DNA of 64,000 nucleotides from an uncultured Acidobacteriota bacterium (GTDB taxonomy: Bacteria > Acidobacteriota > Blastocatellia > RBC074): the NCBI GenBank assembly GCA_963796275.1, contig CAWCKY010000003.1:1088001-1152000 (forward strand). The letters run 5' to 3'. Of this stretch, positions 51,913 through 64,000 are shown one piece after another (position 1 is the first letter of the stretch; every line of letters starts with the position of its first letter). A program made the position numbers and the translations under genes. Below the pieces are notes generated by a model, which saw nothing but the letters and a program-made list of their open reading frames with translations, was not told where the DNA came from and made no database searches.

Positions 51913-52248
51913 GTGGTTAGTAGCGAGAGAATTTATGCAGGTAGTCCGAGCATACGAACAATGAAAAGAGCGAACAGCCCTAATAGGCATACGTGTGCCC
52001 CCTCACAGACGAACGCGAAGCATGGAGCTTCGGTCGATGGTGAGTCGCTCCTCGATGATCGAGATTGGGAGCTTTTCCTGAAAGCATCCGGACTTGATGG
52101 CGATCCGGAGGTGGCGGCTGACGTGCAGGCTCGTCTCTGGTTGCGGCTTGACGAAACTCTCGACCAGCCGTCGAGCGGCAGGCGGTTACGGAGCACGTTT
52201 CGCGCCGGGATCAGGGAAGCTCACAAGCGCTCGAAGTTCATCGAGTAA
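51913..52248 (+). CDS. Hypothetical protein (possibly truncated), paralogue of the next ORF
   Basis: Shares the QARLWLRLDE...FRAGIREA motif; start uncertain. Confidence 0.5.
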   Translation: MVSSERIYAGSPSIRTMKRANSPNRHTCAPSQTNAKHGASVDGESLLDDRDWELFLKASGLDGDPEVAADVQARLWLRLDETLDQPSSGRRLRSTFRAGIREAHKRSKFIE

Positions 52249-52262
52249 CCATAGAAGAATAC

Positions 52263-52658
52263 ATGGCATACATCGAAGGGGACCTGGATATCTATTTTGT
52301 GAATGATGGTATTGAATTACTCTATCACAGAGAGGTAAGGCCTATCGAGATTATGGCATGGACGGATTCTCTGTTTGATGCGCAAGACTGGCTGACATTT
52401 TTGAATCCGGATGCACTTCATGACGATCCGGATGCGGTCGACGATCAAGCCCGTCTTTGGTTGCGACTGGATGAAATCCTAAACAATCCACAGAATGCAG
52501 CTCGATTACGGTATACGTTTAGGGCAGGCATTAGAGAGGCTCAAACACGTTCGACATATAAACACCTGCCGCTACAAGACTACATCGCACATATCAAGAA
52601 CGGATACAGCCGAGAGATCAGGAATACTCTGAGCGGCATGGGTAGAAGGAGAGGGTAA
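52263..52658 (+). CDS. Hypothetical protein
   Basis: 131-aa ORF with a paralogous motif upstream; abuts the next ORF. Confidence 0.65.
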   Translation: MAYIEGDLDIYFVNDGIELLYHREVRPIEIMAWTDSLFDAQDWLTFLNPDALHDDPDAVDDQARLWLRLDEILNNPQNAARLRYTFRAGIREAQTRSTYKHLPLQDYIAHIKNGYSREIRNTLSGMGRRRG

Positions 52659-52659
52659 T

Positions 52660-53262
52660 ATGGCCGCAAGACCACGGGACACTCCCTCACCCAAACAAAT
52701 TAAAGACGCGTTGAGAGAGGCATCAGATGACGACCTGTTCTATGAGGCCTGTCGACGGGGGATGATCTCGTCTCTGGAAATCAAAAGAAGGGAAAGGTGG
52801 GGGGAGGCAAAAAAATCCCAAGAAGATCAAAAAGATTCTGCAGCCAGGCACAGAGAATATGTTGAGGAATTGTTTATCCTACTTCACCAGAAGCGGATCG
52901 AGATGATGAAGGAGAAATGTATCTGGCGCGCGCACACGGCTCCTGAGTTTGCCGCTCTTGGCGTGGTGATGACCAAAACAATTTTCGATCATTTGGTCGA
53001 TGCCCGGCGTGCCGAGTTGGATCAGGGCAGTTGTAATATTGAATCGCTATTGGAAGACTTCATGAGTGATAGCGGCCGCTCATTTGCGGAAAGTCTTGTT
53101 TCAGGAGATATCCGCATCCGGCCTAGTTTGTGGGCAAGTCTCATTTATACGACGGTCCATTATGCTGCTATGTCTTTCTCGGACATAGTGGATGAAGATG
53201 CAGTAGAACCGCTAGACCAGGACGATCAGAATAGTGACAATGAGCCTGGTTTCATCAACTAA
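52660..53262 (+). CDS. Hypothetical protein
   Basis: 200-aa ORF with AGGAGAGG RBS, helical, acidic tail. Confidence 0.65.
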   Translation: MAARPRDTPSPKQIKDALREASDDDLFYEACRRGMISSLEIKRRERWGEAKKSQEDQKDSAARHREYVEELFILLHQKRIEMMKEKCIWRAHTAPEFAALGVVMTKTIFDHLVDARRAELDQGSCNIESLLEDFMSDSGRSFAESLVSGDIRIRPSLWASLIYTTVHYAAMSFSDIVDEDAVEPLDQDDQNSDNEPGFIN

Positions 53263-54035: not shown

Positions 54036-54980
54036 ATGACACCTTCCTCAACTGCACGCGGCAGCCTGGAATATCAGTTTACAAATGAAGTCACCCTGGC
54101 ACCAATTGCCGTTGAGGTCCAATCCAAGGAGCCCCATGTTGCGTATCGTCAGCCTTTCTGCCTCTCGTCTCGTCTTGTCAATTCTATTCTCATTCAGTCT
54201 GATTTATGGGCCGGTCATCTCGCTCAGATCAGTGAGCGCGGAAAACCTGTCCCGATCAAGCCCTCAAGCAAAGCCCAACAAGTGACCAAGCATCACAAGG
54301 AGGGCGAGATAATCGTCAAATTCAAACAGGACGCGCCGCAGTCGCTGCGCGATCTGGTCGTCCAAACCTATGCCAGCAGCGAGAAGCAGTCGCGCGGGCG
54401 CGGCAAATTGAGCACGCTCCGGATCAAGGGCGGGCTCGATCTGAGCGATACCATCTTCAACATCAAGCAGATGGATGCGATCGTCGAGTACGCCGAGCCG
54501 AACTACGTCGTCACTCGTACCGGTAATCTCAAGAAGCTGAATCGTCACGCCCTCTCAAAGCCGACTACAAAAATTCCGAACGATTCCAGGTTCAGCCTGC
54601 AGTGGGCGCTCTCAAACGCGGGCCAGAACAACGGCGCGCCAGGCTCGGACATCGGCGCCCTGGCCGGCTGGCAGCAGACCACGGGCTCAGAGAAGACGAT
54701 CATCGCCGTGATCGATACGGGAGTCGATGCGAGGCATCCCGACCTGGCGCGCAACCTCTGGGTCAACAAACAGGAGAGCAAGGGCAAGCGGGGCGAGGAC
54801 GATGATGGCGATGGTTATTTCGACAATGTCTCGGGATGGAATTTCGTCAATGATTCAAACAATGTGACAGACGATCACGGGCACGGGACGGCGATGGCGG
54901 GCATCATCGCGGCCGAGGGCGATAACCGCGAAGGGATCGCGGGTGTGATGAGGCGCGCGAGCATTATGGCGCTCAAGGCA
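54036..54980 (+). pseudogene. S8 subtilase N-terminal part (prodomain, catalytic Asp and His; Ser region missing)
   Basis: GEIIVKFK, YAEPNY, IAVIDTGVD and HGHGTAMAGII motifs; similarity ends at IMALKA. Confidence 0.85.
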
Positions 54981-54981
54981 G

Positions 54982-55453
54982 AGCGAGACGCGCCAGTTCC
55001 AGGGACTCTCGGGGACCTACCGAGTGAGTTACGCATACAACCTGGTCGATGCGCTCAAGCAGGTGACTTATACGGCCAACAGCTGGACCAAGAGCGTCAA
55101 TTACGATTACAACTTTGCCGGAGCGACTGCGAAGATCGGGACGAACCTCAATCCGCTGGGGGGAGTGAGCGACAACGTGATGAAGACTCTCAACTATCGA
55201 GCGTTTGGAGCGCTCAAGAACGGAGATTTCGGCAACGGGCGGAGGATCGAACTGGACTATAGCCATAAACGGCTGAATATGACGAGCCACAAAGTGATCA
55301 AGGCGAGCCCGTTTGAAGCGATCATCGACAACGTCTATGACTATTACGATACGGCGGAACTCAATAATGGCCGAGTGCAGAAGATCACTGATAATCTCGA
55401 TTCCAATTTCACGGCGACCTATGGATACGACGATTACGATCGGCTCGCGAGTG
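54982..55453 (+). pseudogene. Rhs/YD-repeat fragment upstream of the nested insertions
   Basis: SETRQFQGLSGTYRVSYAYN...YRAFG...YGYDDYDRLAS. Confidence 0.8.
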
Positions 55454-57080
55454 TGCATATTTCGACGTATCGTGAACACCAAATCCGGCTGATCGGTTCT
55501 CCCCAGAGTTTGGTGAAGACATTCCTTGTTATTCAACTGCGCTAAGGTGGCTCTGCTCATATCGCATTCAATATCCGCGCCTTCAGCAGGTCGAATTTAG
55601 CCCGACCGAACATCTGTCTCTTGATATATTTGAGCTTATTTACCTGTCCTTCTGTTTGACCGTTACTCCACGGTGAGGTGAAGGCTTTCTTAACGGCTTC
55701 ATAATCGCGGCGGATTCCATTGATAAAGCCCTTGAACGGATTACCTACTGCGGCTTCAGCTTGTTTGATCCATTCATCCAGACCGCCTACTTTTCTGGCA
55801 GCCAGGAGACGGCGAAAGCTCTGCACCAGCTCCAGACCTTGTTTAATGGGATCCATCTTCAGAAGCTGTTCGCGTTCTTGCCGCTCTTGCTCGGTCAACT
55901 TGTCTTGCGTTCTCAACAAGAGCCAGACACTCTGCCGTGCCGTCGGAACCTGTCGTTTCGGTGGCTTGAAACGGGACGGTGATAATAGGATGCCATTCAC
56001 GATAATCCCATCGTCCTGGCGCCAGGGATACACATAGCGCCAGACTCTGACACGGCTGCCGATGGTATCCTTGCGCAACCAATTCTCGATGCAACTGTTG
56101 AGCGTTGTGGCAACCTTCTGCCCATCGCGCCCTCAGATAAGCATCATATTGCTCAACTCCACTGCCAGGCGCTTGACGTTGTACGATCGGATATTCACTG
56201 GCTTCATAGAGCAACCGCGTCCCTTCGTAGCTGCCACCCAGATACCGTGCAACCTGGGCAATGTTCAGTCCTTCCGCCTTGAGTTCCTGTACCTTTTCAT
56301 AACGTGCTTTGCGGCTCGCGTGCCATTGCTGCCGTTTAATTTGATCTTTCTGCGATCGGACGTACTCGCTCGGTGTCGGCGGCACCACATGCTCAATCTC
56401 CGGTGGAGGTGGCGGTGCTGTCGGCAATAACTCATCAGCAAAGACCGTTTGCCAGTGTGCTTTGATGGCACTTGCCTGGCGATGCAACAGCTCTTCAAAA
56501 GCACTCGTCAGGTTCTTGAAGATATGCCAGCGATCGGCGATCTGCTCGGCCTGTGGAGCACCACTAGTCGCCCCTTCCTGGTAAGCCGTCGCGCGATCTC
56601 GACTGATCGTGGTTACGCTCGGATGTTGATGCAGCCATTCCGCCAGAGGAGCAGCCTCGCGACCCGGCAAAAGGTCGATTACCTTGTGCCTTTCAAAGTC
56701 CACCAATACCGTGCCGTACTCGCAGCCTCGTCGCAGAGCGAAATCATCGACGCCTAGGACTTTTATCTCGTCCGTTGTTTGCTCCGCCACTGGCGCGAAA
56801 TCGCGAATGCGTTTGATTAAGGTCGAGGCGCTTACTTGATAACCAAGCTTTTCTGCCAGTCTGGACCCTAGCTCTCCGCCCGAGGCGAGCCCCAGCAAGG
56901 TTTGATGCTGATTAAGGCGCACGGTGCCATGGGAATATTTTTCCACGCATTCTGGCAGTCGTTCACAAAAGATGGTGCGAGGGCAGCCCGTGTTTTCACA
57001 AAAGAATTTGCGCGCATGAAGTAGGAGGCGGACGGAAAACCCCGCAGTCGGTAGATCGCGAGGGCGCCGTAGGTAAGAGC

Positions 57081-58477
57081 CACTGGTATCTACACAAGTT
57101 TTTGCGTTTGGTTGCAAAGAGTTATCGCAATCAAACCTACCGAAAGAATATGCTCTTTGAATGTTTCTCCTCAAACCTCCATTTGACCCCCGTTTGCAAA
57201 GACGGTATGAGAGGCTGGTGAATGAACATCTCCATACAAGCGAGAATCAAGCTGCTGGATCGCGTGCGCTGCCGAGCGTTAATGAAGCGTTTGCCAGCAC
57301 GCAAGCGGCCTGGCGATTTTATGCCAACCCCAATGTGAGGCTGACGGGGCTGGTCGAACCGTTGGTAGAACAAGCTCGGCGGGAGATGCCGCTTGTCTGT
57401 CGACGGTATGGACTGGCGATCCACGACTGGTCTGATCTGCGCTACGGAACGCATACGAGCAAGAAGGATCGGAAAAAAATCGGCAGCGACTTGGGCTACA
57501 AACTGGCGACCACCTTGCTGCTGAGCGACCAGAGCGGGGCGCCGATAGCGCCGATCAGCCTTGGGCTGTGGGCCAATGATGGTTGGCACACAACGCTTGA
57601 TGAAGAGAGGCACAGAGATTGGTCGCCCCTGGGATTGGTGAGCCAGACAATGCGGGCTTCGCAGAAGCAAAAACTGTCGTTGCCGCTGGTCCACATCATT
57701 GATCGGGAAGGCGACTCGATCTTTCACTATCGTCAATGGAATAGTGAAGGCCATCTGTTTGAAGTACGTGCCAACGGGGAACAGAGAGTTGTTTGGCAGG
57801 AGCGGACACAACCGTTGAGCCAGGTCGCAGCACAGGTCGCCTTGCGCGCTAGCCAAGCGGTAGAGATTTCGGCCAATCTCATTGGGCAACTGTTTGTGGG
57901 CGAAACCAGCATCGTCATTGATCGTCCGGCCTTTCCCCGCGCGCGCGACGGGGGCAAGCGTCAATGGATCAAAGGTGAGCCGCTCGAACTGCGCTTGATT
58001 GTCTGTCAACTGCGCTTGCCCGATGAAACGATTGCGGCTGAATGGTACTTGCTCAGTAACGTGCCGGCTGGCATCAGCGCTGAGCAACTGGCCGAATGGT
58101 ACTACTGGCGCTGGAGAATTGAATCTTACTTCAAGTTGCTTAAAAGTCATGGTTTCCAAGTCGACCAGTGGCAGCAGGAAACTGCTGAGGCGATTGCCAA
58201 ACGTTTGTTGGTGGCGGCCATGGCTTGTGTCGTAGTCTGGCACATCCAACGCGCAACGGATCCGCAGACGGTCACCCTGCGCAATCTCTTGGTGCGATTG
58301 AGCGGTCGACAAGTTCGGCGTGGGCAACCCACTGCACCAGCATTGTTGGCTGGGTTTTGGAGTTTCTTGTCGACACTTGAATTGCTCGAACATTATGACC
58401 TCAATGACCTTAAACAGATGGCCCGGCTCATTGTGCCAGGCTATTCCTGACCGTCGGAAAATGTGTAGATGCCAGTG
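57081..58477 (+). mobile_element. IS4-family (IS50/Tn5-like) element with 9-bp target duplication GGTAAGAGC
   Basis: IRs CACTGG[T/C]ATCTACACA; duplication at 57072-57080 and 58478-58486. Confidence 0.92.
57161..58450 (+). CDS. IS4-family DDE transposase, intact
   Basis: AIHDWS, IIDREGD and YYWRWRIESYFKLLK (YREK motif). Confidence 0.92.
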   Translation: MFLLKPPFDPRLQRRYERLVNEHLHTSENQAAGSRALPSVNEAFASTQAAWRFYANPNVRLTGLVEPLVEQARREMPLVCRRYGLAIHDWSDLRYGTHTSKKDRKKIGSDLGYKLATTLLLSDQSGAPIAPISLGLWANDGWHTTLDEERHRDWSPLGLVSQTMRASQKQKLSLPLVHIIDREGDSIFHYRQWNSEGHLFEVRANGEQRVVWQERTQPLSQVAAQVALRASQAVEISANLIGQLFVGETSIVIDRPAFPRARDGGKRQWIKGEPLELRLIVCQLRLPDETIAAEWYLLSNVPAGISAEQLAEWYYWRWRIESYFKLLKSHGFQVDQWQQETAEAIAKRLLVAAMACVVVWHIQRATDPQTVTLRNLLVRLSGRQVRRGQPTAPALLAGFWSFLSTLELLEHYDLNDLKQMARLIVPGYS

Positions 58478-58719
58478 GGTAAGAGCTATGGACCTTCTGT
58501 GTTGGCTGTTGGCATACAGGGCAATGAACAACTGTTCGTGTTGTCTTAGCCTCGATCGTCATCACTAGCCCCGAAACGTTAAGTTTCTCGAATGCAATCA
58601 GATGCGGTGAGGGAATCAAAGCATCCATCCCGCAGCTTTTAACAGATGCTACGTCTCATCACCAAACTCTGGGGAGAACCCATCGTCGAATTTACCTTTC
58701 ACCATCACCGAAATACGCA

Positions 58720-60142
58720 AGTGCCAATGCGACATCCTTCGGGCGCACATACAGCTACGATGAATGGGGCAATCTGACCAATGTCGCTGCTACCGGTGCT
58801 GGAGAGAGTGGGGGCTATTCACTCAGCTATGTGAACAATGCGAGCGGTGCGCCGCTCAATAACAGGATCAACAACGCCGGGCATGTGTACGATGCGGCCG
58901 GGAATATGACTCAAGACCCTGCGCTGAGTTATACATATGACGCGGCCAATCGGTTGAAGACGGCGGGAGTGGGCAGCAGCTACGGATATGACGGAGACGG
59001 GTGGAAGGTAAAACAGGTGTCGGGAGTCAGCACGGGTTTCTCCCTGTGGTCGAGCGTGTTGGGACAGCCGGTGGTGGAACTGACGAGCGGAGGAGTAAAC
59101 CGAGCCTATGTCTACTCGAGTGGAGGGCAAGTGCTTGGGCTGCAGGCGACGGATCAACAGTTCTACTGGGTGCACACTGATCATCTGGGAAGCGGGAAGA
59201 TGATGACGAACACGAGCGGGGCAGTGGTCTATCGAGGACAGTACGATCCGCATGGGCAGATGGTCTATGAGTGGGCGAGCGATGGACAGATGAACAAGAA
59301 TTCGCACAAGTTCACGGGATATGAAAGGGATTCGGCGGCGGATTTGGATTATGCGAAGGCGCGGATGTACAGTAGGTTCAAGGGGAGGTTTACGTCGCCT
59401 GATCCATTGGGGTTGGGTGCTGCTGATCTGAGCAACCCGCAGAGTTTGAATCTGTATAGCTATGTCGGGAATGATCCAGTGAATTACACTGACCCGACCG
59501 GCTTGTTTAAGCATAATCCACCACAATCACCAAAACCACCAAGCATATGATCCGGCTTTTCTGGACTTCTTCCTGGATTCATTGGAGTTTCACAGCCGAA
59601 GTGGCGGCGGGTTTCAAGGGGGAGGAGGCGGTGGTCGCGGGGGGCAGGCGCCAGCGCAAACACCAACGCCGCCTCCACCGCAAACTGATTGTGAGCGGTT
59701 TGCAGACATGGTTGCTAACATTGCGGCTCAGGCGACTGGAAGTGAGAATTTCTTCGACAGGATGGCAAGTACCTTTACTGCCGCGAATAACAGTAGCATA
59801 AGTGAAATGAATAGAACTCAAGCATTGGGATTGCCAGCTGGTAGACCAAGATTTGGAGATTCGGGTTTCAAAAGTCAGTTCCGAGATGGCAGTAATCAGG
59901 TTCGGCATTTCACAGCTGGCCTGATAGCGGGATATAGGATAGGCACTACACCTGCTCTTCTCTTCATGAATAGTCGAGAAACATCCGGTATAGATGATGC
60001 TGACATTGCACTCAACCGTGAAAGTACTAGTATGGGGATGACTTACAGCGCTAGACCTGGGAGCTTTGCTGATCTTATCAACTTAACGGGTGGCAACTAC
60101 GGAGAGTTAGCTGATCAAATAAGAAAGAGATTATGTTTATGA
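58720..60142 (+). pseudogene. Rhs core C-terminal part plus toxin domain (frameshift near 59540)
   Basis: YSYDEWGNL, HTDHLGS, KFTGYERD, RFTSPDP and YSYVGNDPVNYTDPTG motifs; Gly/Pro linker; C-terminal domain in 59582..60142. Confidence 0.88.
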
Positions 60143-60669
60143 GTAAGTTTATCAAATGTGCAATCACTATTATTGGGGTTATAGCGTTAAGTAGTTGCAA
60201 TCTTCTGCTTCCCCCTCGTATAGGTAAAGTAACTGAAACTTGGGTCACTACAAATAACACATTTAAAATTCGTGTGAACAGGCACGCCGAAGAAAATGGT
60301 GGATTTGTGGGAGGAGCTTATTACGTTTTCCAAGCTGCTAAACAAGACTCAGACAACTGGACAGAGATCATGGTGGTTCGACACGATGATCCGATTGATA
60401 TTCCGCGAAAACAATTGCGCTTTGTGAATGATCAGATCGGTTACACATTCATGAATCGCAAGTTCGCCTCCACTATTGATGGAGGAATAACTTGGTCTGT
60501 TTGGGATGCGGTGGACAACCTTCAGGATTGGAAACTGACACGCGCATCGATAAGTGATGTACATATAGAGCCAAATGGGGATGGAGCTATGAAACTCGTT
60601 TCTTTTACAGATCACCCCCCTCCCAATCTTTTTACAAAGGACTATGGAAAAATCTGGGTTGTCAAGTAG
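60139..60669 (+). CDS. Lipoprotein, candidate cognate immunity protein
   Basis: ATGA overlap with the toxin stop; lipobox LSSC; Asp-box motifs STIDGGITW and TKDYGKIW; AT-richer than the core genes. Confidence 0.75.
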   Translation: MSKFIKCAITIIGVIALSSCNLLLPPRIGKVTETWVTTNNTFKIRVNRHAEENGGFVGGAYYVFQAAKQDSDNWTEIMVVRHDDPIDIPRKQLRFVNDQIGYTFMNRKFASTIDGGITWSVWDAVDNLQDWKLTRASISDVHIEPNGDGAMKLVSFTDHPPPNLFTKDYGKIWVVK

Positions 60670-60732
60670 CTTTCAGACCACTAGTCGAGCATAGTGGCAG
60701 AGCAGTGGTGGATGTGACTGACTGTAGACGTT

Positions 60733-61150
60733 CTTAATCGTAAATGCCTCTTGGATGAGGATTCCATCCACATCGAATAATCGATTAAGAACCTTCTCGA
60801 GAGATTTTCCTCGCTTATTTGTGTCGGTTTCTTTGAACAAGGCGAATAAGTCAGCCTTTATAGATGAGATTCTCTCACGACGATTGGCCTCTTCCTTTTG
60901 TTTAGCGCGAGTTTCCTCTACGCGTTGTTGTCTTTCTGCTTCACGCTCTATGTTCATCCTCGTGAATGCATCTTTTACGCCAATAATACGTCGAACATCT
61001 GCGACTTGGCCCTTTGCCTTCAATTGATCATTTGGCCAGCAAGTAGAAAAGTCTTCAAAGTCCGAAATGCGTTTTAGAACTTCGCGCCTTTCTCGCAGAG
61101 TTGCATCTCCGCCTTCATTTAGTCTCGTTAAAACAACGCGCGCGTAATTT
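60733..61150 (-). pseudogene. Fragment of a restriction-endonuclease (Mrr-like) gene, nuclease domain truncated
   Basis: RREVLKRISDFEDFSTCWPNDQLKAKG...RGKSLEKVLNRLF; no start codon; cut after EAFTIK. Confidence 0.5.
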
Positions 61151-61367: not shown

Positions 61368-62025
61368 ATGTCATACTGGATGACTCTATATCGCAAGCTG
61401 TTTATCTTGAGCCTTGGATTGGGATTGATGACTGCTTGCTTTTTCTTAGTTGAGGTCTGGGCGAGCCGCCACTATTCAAGCAGGGCCCTGCAGAGCGCAC
61501 TGCCAGACCTAATACCTGCTACGACACTCCCTGGCACAGAGGATGAGATGAAGTGGTGGCAAACAGTTCGATCGCAGGCCGTGAAGCCGTCGCATCCTGG
61601 GCACGTAAGGACGAAGCAATCACCAAAGCCAAACGCAGACAGATAAGAGTCGCGTGGGGTATATCCGCTCATGCGAAGAGAAGGTATCTGATTCCACCAA
61701 ACAATTCGTGAGCTTGATGCGCGAGGCAGGTGAAAAATCATATCGAGTGCCGGTGCCTGACAACCGCCCTATCATTCTCCATAAAACCATGCCGAACTAC
61801 ACCGATGAGGCACGGCGGAGGAAAGTTAAGGGATCTGTCGTCATCTCTACAATGTTTCTTGCTGACGGGGAAGTTGGCGATGTCAGGATTGTACGGGGAT
61901 TGGGAGCGGGATTGGATGAAAAGGCATCTGAGGTTGCCCGCCAGATTCTCTTTCTTCCAGCAGTCAAGGATGGAGTGTTTGTTCCAACCCACTCCAACGT
62001 GGACATGGGGTTCAACATTTACTGA
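61368..62025 (+). pseudogene. TonB C-terminal domain protein with frameshift(s) near 61575-61650
   Basis: N-terminal TM helix; PNYTDEARRRKVKGSV, VRGLGAGLDEKA and FLPAVKDG in another frame. Confidence 0.7.
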
Positions 62026-62152
62026 GCGGGCATTTTGGGAGATACGAGTTTGGACAAATAGGGGATGGTCAAATGGCCTATCCATATGGATGTTAACTTT
62101 GCCAGAACTGTATGGTCCTAAACTCCATATCAGGCTAAGCAGGAGGCACAAA

Positions 62153-64000
62153 ATGCATGCTGTATCAGGAGGCGCTTGCGCCAGTTGCAGAGCCATCTGC
62201 CTTTTCATTGCCATCGGGTTGTTACTAGGCGGCAAGGGAAAAGCGCAGGAGAAAACTGACATACTCCATGATCTCGCGCAGAAATTGCAATCTCCTGACA
62301 GAGTCACCCGTCGCACTGCGGTAGAGGCGTTAGGAGTGTTTGGGGCGGTGGCTATGCCCGCCTTAATCGGCGCGCTCAAAGATCAGGACGCGGAGGTTCG
62401 CGTCTCTGCGGCAGAGGCGTTAGTGAATATTGGGCCGGCGGCGAAGGAAGCAGTGCCAGCACTGATCGTGGCACTCAAGGATCCGGAGGAAATGCTTCGC
62501 TTCTACGCAGCGTGGGCATTAGGGCAGATCGGTCCCGAGGCGAAGGAAGCCGTGCCGGCACTTATCGCCGCACTCAAGGATCCGAATGAATTTGTTTACG
62601 ACGTCGCACAAAATGCATTAAAGCGAATAGGGACAGCAGCCGTGCCTGCGTTGATCATCGCGCTCAAGTATCCGGAGGTAGGTGATCGCAGCTCCGCGGC
62701 AGAGGCATTAGGAAAGGTTGGGCCGGCGGCGAAGGAAGTAGTGCCGGCGCTGATTGAGGCACTCAAGGATCCAGAGCCGCGTGTTCGCAGCTCCGCGGCC
62801 AAGGCACTGGGGGAGATCGGGCCCGAGGCAAAGGAGGCTGTGCCCGCGCTGATCCTGGCACTGAAAGATCCGGATGCACGTGTCCGCGGCTCCGCAGCAT
62901 ACGCGTTCAAAGGGATTGGGCCGGCAGCGAAAGAGGCCGTTCCGGTGCTTATCGCCGCGCTCAAGGATCCACGGGAAAGTGTTCGCGGCGCCGCAGCATC
63001 ACTAGGATGGATTGGGCCTGAGGCGAAGGAAGCAGTGCCGGCGCTGATTGCTGCGCTCAAGGATCCACATGAAATTGTTCGTAACTCCGCAGCATCCTCA
63101 TTAGGGCAGATCGGTCACGAGGCGAAAGAGGCCGTGCCTGCCTTGATCGCCGCGCTCAAAGATCCGGATGGAGTTGTTCGCGGCTCCGCAGCCAATGCAT
63201 TGGCGCGGATAGGGCCGGAAGCCGTGCCTGCCTTGATCCCCCTGCTCAAGGATCCTGGGGTAGGTGTCCGCAACCTTGCATTCCATGCATTAGGGCAGAT
63301 CGGTCCCGAGGCGAAGGAAGCAGTGCCGGCACTTATCGCCACACTCAAGGGATCCGGACGCAAACATTCGCATCGCCACACAAAATGCATTAAAGCGAAT
63401 AGGGACAGCAGCCGTGCCTGCGTTGATCATCGCGCTCAAGTATCCGGAGGTAGGTGATCGCAGCTCCGCGGCAGAGGCATTAGGAAAGGTTGGGCCGGCG
63501 GCGAAGGAAGTAGTGCCGGCGCTGATTGAGGCACTCAAGGATCCAGAGCCGCGTGTTCGCAGCTCCGCGGCCAAGGCACTGGGGGAGATCGGGCCCGAGG
63601 CAAAGGAGGCTGTGCCCGCGCTGATCCTGGCACTGAAAGATCCGGATGCGCATGTCCGCGGCTCCGCAGCATCACTAGGGGGAATTGGGCCTGAGGCGAA
63701 GGAAGCAGTGCCGGCGTTGATTGCTGCGCTCAAGGATCCGGATGCACGTGTTCGCAGCTCCGCGGCTAGTGCGCTAGGGTGGATTGGACCTGAGGCAAAG
63801 GAGGCTGTGCCCGCGCTGATCCTGGCACTGAAGGATCCGGAGGCAAATGTCCGGAGCTCCGCAGCATATGCGTTCAAAGGGATCGGGGCGGCGGCGAAAG
63901 AGGCTGTGCCCGCGCTTATTGAGGTGCTAAAGAATGGAATACTCGCTAATAGAATACTCGCTAGCGGCTCCGCAGCAGAGGCCTTGGTGGGAATCGGGCC
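62153..64000 (+). CDS. Secreted HEAT/PBS-lyase-like repeat protein; apparent +1 frameshift near 63349; runs off the window
   Basis: AGGAGG RBS, signal peptide, many [32 protein letters not shown] repeats. Confidence 0.9.

Follow-up and report, generated by a model that had tools for sequence, protein, structure and literature searches.

A conserved Rhs toxin tip of plausible lipocone affinity and its Asp-box lipoprotein partner in a decayed acidobacterial locus

The 64,000-nucleotide stretch of DNA analysed here (hereafter the window; contig CAWCKY010000003.1 of an uncultured Acidobacteriota bacterium) carries near its 3' end the C-terminal toxin tip of an Rhs protein, followed without a gap by a gene for an exported Asp-box protein. 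Judged by sequence comparison, the tip is a real, conserved and undescribed family, and tip and downstream gene very probably form a toxin/immunity pair. As a whole, our best explanation is evenly balanced between belief and doubt: an Rhs tip acting as a lipocone-like envelope enzyme, blocked by its BNR lipoprotein, and present in this genome as a remnant.

A conserved toxin tip and its exported partner

The elements of the pair are as follows.
59549-59683, plus strand: pre-toxin linker, a short hydrophobic/acidic segment followed by a Gly-rich and Pro-rich spacer (from the +1-frame translation and protein P0001, described below).
59684-60142, plus strand: toxin tip domain of 152 amino acids with its stop codon (tip itself 59684-60139; supported by 136 homologues and an AlphaFold2 (AF2) model).
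59906-59908, 59978-59980 and 60002-60004, plus strand: codons of the candidate catalytic residues His75 (in GSNQVRH), Glu99 (in FMNSRE) and Asp107 (in DDADIALN), to which Asn111 is added, all chosen by conservation.
60139-60669, plus strand: immunity candidate, an exported Asp-box/BNR lipoprotein of 176 amino acids (ATGA overlap, 84 homologues; alternative ATG at 60133).

An all-frame reading recovered the sequence marks that an earlier sequence-only reading of this region had picked out, namely DPTG, the Pro/Gly-rich linker and the strings GSNQVRH, FMNSRE and DDADIALN, all where that reading had placed them. In the +1 frame the linker begins DPAFLDFF; its composition runs from Pro-rich through Gly-rich and back to Pro-rich. 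The proposed coupling of the two genes was likewise confirmed, as stop and start codons overlap at 60139-60142 (ATGA), and so was the lipobox LSSC of the downstream gene, with its Cys codon at 60196-60198. Both Asp-boxes are there as well, STIDGGITW (60469-60495) and a degenerate second, TKDYGKIW (60634-60657).

When 1.84 billion representatives of a 15-billion protein collection were searched exhaustively with HMMER, 136 homologues of the tip came up at E<=1e-3, 51 of them at <=1e-10 and 7 at <=1e-30. The match sits C-terminally in these proteins, often behind DPxGL, and their source annotation reads only 'RHS repeat-associated protein'. Among 20 long members that were scanned, RHS_repeat was found in 11, SpvB in two and TcdB_midN in two, while eCIS_core occurred in one of 107 shorter members. 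One of the 136 matches, P0065 (nSTAND/MORN), was rejected as spurious, aligning only to query residues 48-76. We looked for a strong match of the tip to another toxin family, and none emerged: Pfam, NCBIfam and PADLOC hold no family for it, and no nuclease, deaminase or ADP-ribosyltransferase (ART) match was obtained. In the PDB, sequence searches with the single tip and with the tip profile turned up nothing but chance rows or the Rhs tail. Within the phylum the family is patchy, occurring in 5 of 401 Acidobacteriota genomes sampled, the window's genome included.

Across 119 aligned tip domains, Asp107 is invariant (119/119), His75 is kept in 118, Glu99 in 107 and Asn111 in 90. Further conserved positions are Gly61 (117/119), Gln72 (114/119), Arg74 (107/119) and Gly118 (106/118). 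Of the 61 tips that cover both ends, 59 have Cys3 as well as Cys151. The AF2 model of the tip is confident (predicted local distance difference test (pLDDT) 93.6) and all-alpha; helices 72-86, 88-96 and 105-119 carry His75, Glu99 and Asp107 within them or at their ends, and a further helix spans residues 140-149. A model made from the single sequence was discarded, with a pLDDT of 44.6.

The immunity protein begins with MSKFIKCAITIIGVIALSSC, in which a Lys-containing n-region, an h-region and a lipobox of the form [LVI][ASTVI][GAS]C can be recognised by pattern. Its 84 homologues are about 175-195 amino acids long, and 48 of 71 of them match Pfam BNR (PF02012) at E<=0.1, the best at 1.7e-4; the window protein itself scores 11.7 bits (E 0.29; cut-off 27 bits). 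Beyond this weak BNR match in Pfam, it has no NCBIfam or PADLOC match, and the immunity profile found no sequence relative in the PDB. For homologue P0174 the ESM Atlas neighbours are exclusively of BNR/Ycf48/sortilin type, with a family agreement of 10/10, and alignments of its model with portions of larger propellers give template-modelling scores, by query, of 0.5-0.6. The mature protein, of about 155 residues, corresponds to roughly half a propeller.

To see the pair in other genomes we rely on a scan of one genome per species with an alignment of the tip's closer relatives. It found eight tip loci, all in Acidobacteriota (Pyrinomonadaceae, Blastocatellia and Terriglobia). In 8/8 loci, and 9/9 copies, an immunity homologue directly follows the toxin, its first possible start lying between -53 and +66 nt from the toxin stop. 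This adjacency in eight other genomes bears out the earlier view of an Rhs C-terminal toxin with a cognate, coupled and exported immunity gene. One of these loci (L011, 822-2866) holds a tandem duplication of the toxin-immunity module, and in three others (L007, L009 and L012) further Rhs-core fragments lie 3' of the immunity gene, forming arrays of orphan modules in these relatives. Two of the tips in relatives are orphans without a core, with orphan or truncated copies in L009 and L011. A published description of the pair was not found in the literature on Rhs immunity proteins with BNR repeats, nor in that on Min-Wnt polymorphic toxins, where PMC12419801 was the only study to come up.

Site of action

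The N-termini of the immunity family, with lipoboxes or membrane anchors, the BNR fold and the N/C-terminal cysteine pair make an envelope target, as previously suggested, the best reading, and we consider it probable that the tip acts there. The cytoplasm is the site of action of most characterised Rhs tips, and this general precedent favours a different reading, that of a cytoplasm-acting toxin (a nuclease, an NADase or similar) for which the downstream N-terminus would be a mere anchor, or the downstream gene no immunity gene. The distribution of export signals can be cited for it too, the strict lipobox pattern being found in only 19/71 immunity homologues; in most others a hydrophobic stretch precedes a Cys, or there is an anchor that looks uncleaved. 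The window copy, however, has a canonical lipobox, its partner belongs to the BNR/Asp-box repeat proteins, a kind found outside the cytoplasm, and the terminal cysteines are kept together in nearly all tips. Neither the lack of any nuclease, deaminase or ART family match nor the unbroken adjacency of toxin and immunity genes sits well with a cytoplasmic toxin, which we regard as quite improbable.

Relation to the lipocone superfamily

The lipocone fold is a four-helix cone with a His on the second helix (H2), a Glu on H3, an Asp on H4, a polar residue after this Asp and a Gly cap, and the superfamily includes Wnt and serum amyloid A (SAA) (PMC12419801). According to that study, the lipid II phosphatase TelC stands alone among lipocone toxins in having a measured activity, and all immunity proteins of lipocone toxins are transmembrane proteins or lipoproteins (PMC12419801). 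The tip family displays the lipocone residue pattern, with His, Glu and Asp and, counted from the Asp, an Asn four residues on (+4) and a Gly cap eleven residues on (+11).

Two acidobacterial Rhs proteins with assigned tips of this kind allowed a direct comparison. The first, L013 (G221:C5, 1417-2157, minus strand), is a short Rhs-tail protein ending in DUF6973, a tip found in 1 of the 401 genomes. Its motif strings are present in the Min-Wnt sequence file of PMC12419801, and DUF6973 therefore corresponds at least partly to Min-Wnt; the main text of PMC12419801, as far as available, does not mention this equivalence. Window tip and L013 tip agree in four spacings: Gly at +12 and Glu at +24 from the His, and Asn at +4 and Gly at +11 from the Asp. 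The second protein, L003 (G176:C48, 1-1990), carries a bona fide SAA tip (PF00277, 93 bits); prok-SAA tips occur in 2/401 genomes at E<=1e-3, one of them above the cut-off. The small open reading frame (ORF) that follows L003 has a hydrophobic segment and several cysteines, fitting the Cys-rich immunity proteins linked to prok-SAA toxins in the available text of PMC12419801.

Profile comparison and two further searches give weak signals in the same direction. With a permissive setting, hhalign aligned the tip (119-sequence alignment) to a 29-sequence prok-SAA profile over 80 columns with a score of 15.9 (P 0.042), and this alignment pairs His with His, RE with RE and DxxxN with DxxxN. None of 60 block-shuffled templates reached 15.9 (mean 10.6, sd 1.3, max 14.4), and the reversed template scored 9.8. 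Among the ESM-feature neighbours of the tip of homologue P0257 are two clusters that carry SAA (14% of members, 0.93; 63%, 0.88) and one that carries DUF6973 (12%, 0.92), and a search of viral folds in BFVD placed two DUF6973 phage proteins at ranks 4 and 13, with non-significant E-values. In the SAW clade, to which Min-Wnt and prok-SAA belong, a fifth helix packs between H2 and H4, according to the available text of PMC12419801; in the tip model a C-terminal helix is predicted at residues 140-149.

Other results weigh against a lipocone relationship. Compared with solved structures, the tip model gave no significant match, and neither TelC nor any other lipocone was among the matches listed. 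Neither the window tip (E<=1) nor a single one of the 107 family members scanned (E<=0.1) matched Pfam SAA or DUF6973, a search of the tip's own genome with DUF6973 (PF22322) returned nothing at E<=1, and HMMER profile-sequence searches of the tip family against SAA/DUF6973 sequences found nothing. A first hhalign run against prok-SAA covered 33 columns at E 0.089 and a probability of 0.6%, pairing RE and DxxxN, and the comparison with a single Min-Wnt-type sequence gave P 0.27. The neighbours of P0257 show a family agreement of 4/10, which the Atlas calibration rates 'probably wrong'. The SAW-clade motif sNxxGR is missing from the tip family, whose consensus there is D-x-x-L-N-x-x-S-x-x-L-G (LNxxS). 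The family also has a Gly at -6 of the His in 56/118 members and a Ser at -3 of the Asp in 37/119, two features that the available text of PMC12419801 assigns to the CapCone/ClaspCone side. Finally, nine motif strings of the tip family occurred 0 times in the sequence files of the 30 published lipocone families, where controls occurred 35 times each. Membership of a named lipocone family fails because the Pfam models are unmatched, sNxxGR is missing and the motif strings are not in the 30 family files. The global mode of hhalign was uninformative, and a tblastn search of a phage collection with the DUF6973 tip found no match.

The same negative results feed a further reading, namely that the tip is an envelope toxin whose all-alpha fold is new and not related to the lipocones; it would work by other chemistry (peptidoglycan or lipoprotein hydrolysis, for example) or by non-catalytic binding, with the BNR lipoprotein still its immunity protein. 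Non-catalytic binding in the envelope has a possible model in BteO, a type VI secretion (T6SS) effector that reportedly binds OmpA. That no lipocone matched significantly, in structure or by profile, speaks for a new fold, and so does the empty motif search in all 30 family files. Against it, the near-invariant His, Glu and Asp favour catalysis over mere binding, and four independent weak signals converge on the SAA/Min-Wnt group instead of scattering over families. We accordingly treat a new, unrelated fold as a substantial but lesser possibility.

Taken together, membership of the lipocone superfamily on its SAA/Min-Wnt side is plausible, and the tip would then be an additional family; that it is a lipocone-type phosphoesterase falls at, or just short of, an even call. 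The likeness to SAA and the lipocones that had been seen in the H/RE/DxxxN spacing thus survives as motif spacing and as an hhalign score (P 0.042) that beats 60/60 shuffles, but is not backed by Pfam SAA/DUF6973 or by a significant structural match. The confident model that the sequence-only reading had called for brought no lipocone structure among the matches listed, and a specific closeness to TelC is unsupported. What stands of the proposed uncharacterised toxin-immunity pair is an undescribed, conserved family; attack on lipids or lipid II is plausible but unproven.

Proposed mechanism

After delivery, the tip would be released from its Rhs carrier at the DPxGL self-cleavage motif and act on the periplasmic side of the target envelope. 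The conservation of Cys3 and Cys151 suggests that a disulfide between them may staple the domain. His75, Glu99 and Asp107, together with Asn111, would form a hydrolytic centre, and chemistry of the kind predicted for lipocones, and seen when TelC acts on lipid II, would cut the phosphate-linked head group from a lipid, which could be lipid II, another undecaprenyl-linked precursor or a phospholipid. In the producer's periplasm, the BNR half-propeller lipoprotein would block the tip by binding it.

Comparison with known systems

The closest parallels are the Min-Wnt (DUF6973) and prok-SAA tips of the SAW clade (PMC12419801), likewise C-terminal tips of Rhs type and also present in Acidobacteriota (L003, L013). 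They share with the window family a small, soluble, all-alpha domain, the order His...Glu...Asp-x3-Asn...Gly and an exported immunity partner. In contrast to them, the window family has an H3-H4 connection about nine residues shorter, extra N-terminal helices, an invariant FGDSGF loop and the terminal cysteine pair. A BNR repeat protein serves as its immunity partner, a fold missing from those that the available text of PMC12419801 names for the immunity proteins of lipocone toxins.

TelC-TipC of Streptococcus intermedius, as described in the available text of PMC12419801, is similarly a secreted interbacterial system, with a toxin active only outside the cytoplasm and a membrane- or periplasm-located immunity protein. 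It differs in its delivery, which relies on the type VII secretion system (T7SS) and LXG proteins in Gram-positives whereas the window family uses Rhs; in the Asp that TelC families have six residues after the H4 Asp, where the window's own tip copy has Glu113; and in TipC, which is unrelated to the BNR protein.

Like known orphan tip-immunity modules of Rhs/YD proteins, the locus has YD repeats, a TIGR03696 core, DPxGL and a variable tip of low GC content with an immunity gene; unlike them, it has no full-length rhs gene upstream, its remnant adjoins a truncated S8 gene and holds nested insertion sequences (ISs), and its tip is without a family assignment. The SxDxGxTW Asp-boxes of the immunity protein recall BNR/Asp-box propellers of the Ycf48 or sortilin-Vps10 type. 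Those propellers serve assembly or glycoside hydrolysis, whereas the window protein would neutralise a toxin, is the size of half a propeller and stays below the Pfam cut-off.

If the lipocone assignment is true, a Gram-negative, Rhs-delivered lipocone toxin with another immunity fold would test how far the predicted lipid-head-group chemistry extends across the superfamily, and could reveal another route of attack on lipid-linked cell-wall precursors. Even if the link fails, the toxin/immunity family is still a conserved one, unmatched in Pfam, NCBIfam and PADLOC, and its confident model has no structural neighbour.

The Rhs carrier is a remnant

The elements upstream of the linker are as follows.
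54036-54960, plus strand: truncated subtilase (S8) gene fragment (Pfam Peptidase_S8, positions 2-91 of 288, plus a Fervidolysin N-prodomain).
54985-55470, plus strand: Rhs/YD-repeat shell fragment A, 5'-truncated (BLASTP to P0057 residues 201-364, E 3.5e-44).
55491-58684, no strand assigned: nested ISs that split the Rhs gene, an outer ISL3-family element with an IS4-like element inside (57067-58491).
58711-59547, plus strand: shell fragment B of the Rhs gene, which contains the Rhs-associated core and the DPxGL motif (TIGR03696, Pfam RHS, BLASTP).
59548-59550, plus strand: TGA that ends the Rhs frame, its base 59548 (T) being extra relative to two read-derived records (P0001 and the X1 contig).

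Fragment A, in which the Pfam RHS_repeat match is weak, aligns by BLASTP to residues 1236-1358 of a full-length Rhs protein (P0047, 1,857 amino acids), and because it begins at residue 1236, about 1,235 N-terminal Rhs residues are absent. Its frame begins abruptly, with stop codons immediately 5' of ~54985. Immediately upstream, the subtilase reading frame decays past ~54960, about a third of the catalytic domain being kept, so that at 54036-54985 a subtilase pro-domain and partial catalytic domain are joined to the 5'-truncated Rhs remnant. This junction is a deletion or rearrangement joint.

The outer ISL3 element is bounded by 29-nt inverted repeats (55491-55519/58656-58684, 93%) and the IS4-like element by 30-nt repeats (57067-57096/58462-58491, 77%). 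The latter is inserted near the 5' end of the ISL3 transposase gene; DDE_Tnp_ISL3 is split across two overlapping minus-strand ORFs, and DDE_Tnp_1 lies at 57161-58450 (Pfam).

In fragment B, positions 58711-59508 correspond to P0057 residues 355-623 (BLASTP, E 1.5e-96). YD/RHS repeats and an Rhs-associated core are both present (PF05593, E 1.1e-6; PF03527, 35.5 bits; TIGR03696, 69.3 bits against a cut-off of 32.5), and the core is closed by DPVNYT-DPTGL, with DPTGL at 59491-59505. No intact shell carrying an N-terminal plug or secretion domain was found, the remnant beginning at the equivalent of P0047 residue 1236. Over the tip and the immunity gene, GC content drops from about 0.53-0.57 to ~0.42.

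Past DPTGL, all-frame translation gives ...GNDPVNYT-DPTGL-FKHNPPQSPKPPSI, followed by the TGA at 59548-59550. Contrary to what the sequence-only reading had assumed, core and tip are consequently not one frame in the window: the core ends at this TGA, and only the +1 frame is open across the tip. Removing base 59548 by script yields exactly the 336-amino-acid protein P0001, from GTG 59131. P0001 is encoded on an independent 3,376-nt Logan contig, on which the frame reads through (...PPSI-DPAFL...) and whose immunity protein is 100% identical to that of the window. A single soil-metagenome run (X1) holds part of the stretch (share 0.15), covering 58821-58969, 59224-59384 and 59437-59588 only, and may be the window's own sample; its contig over 59437-59588 (depth 2.2) is without base 59548 and shows no other difference. 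No RNA sequencing run holding the stretch was listed. The DPxGL motif directly before the tip is thus followed by a broken frame in the window and by a continuous one in P0001 and the X1 contig, and an in-frame allele exists.

Since two read-derived records are without the base, the frameshift either arose by an error in assembly or is a mutation of very recent date. Were it genuine in the strain, the tip would be a dead pseudogene here. The window does read ATA-TGA-T at the site, truncation and IS insertion have already damaged the locus, and the metagenome contig that is without the base has a depth of only 2.2. On the other hand, the two records are otherwise identical to the window over the covered stretch, and the Logan contig, with its identical immunity protein, seems to come from this strain or from one nearly identical to it. 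A genuine frameshift is, in our judgement, somewhat less likely than an error of assembly, while deserving serious consideration.

The carrier is truncated, IS-split and perhaps frame-shifted, and the Rhs weapon in this genome is very likely a defunct remnant. The working weapon that the sequence-only reading implied, having overlooked frameshift, 5' truncation and nested ISs, is not what this copy represents. The only functional part of the locus is likely the immunity gene. It alone is intact and therefore most likely persists as orphan protection against toxin-carrying neighbours, which makes the locus a clear case of an immunity gene living on as an orphan after its toxin carrier, the weapon broken and the shield intact. 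Tip and immunity gene each occur once in their own genome (9.46 Mb in seven contigs), which has ten other Rhs-core matches, several of them in open frames of 1,500-2,090 amino acids. About 345 kb beyond the window, a T6SS sheath gene (VipB/TssC, 452 bits) lies at G000:C3:1496478-1497377; because such a gene is encoded, a contractile delivery system is available in the organism.

Neighbouring genes

A promoter and terminator scan was not informative, with one promoter-like site against 3.5 expected and two terminator-like sites against 2.2 expected. At window positions 51913-53262, two adjoining ORFs of 111 and 131 amino acids share a repeated C-terminal segment (...ARLWLRLDE.L...RLR.TFRAGIREA...), with a 200-amino-acid ORF following them; a Pfam scan of the 131- and 200-amino-acid ORFs gave no match. 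The opposite strand carries, directly 3' of the immunity gene, a charged, coiled-coil-like ORF of 116 amino acids (60673-61023, minus strand), which may be a truncated gene and whose Pfam rows are at chance level. The segment at 61730-64000 encodes highly repetitive proteins of the HEAT/PBS-lyase repeat type (HEAT_2, E 4e-87), and the long mirror ORFs opposite these repeats are probably repeat artefacts.

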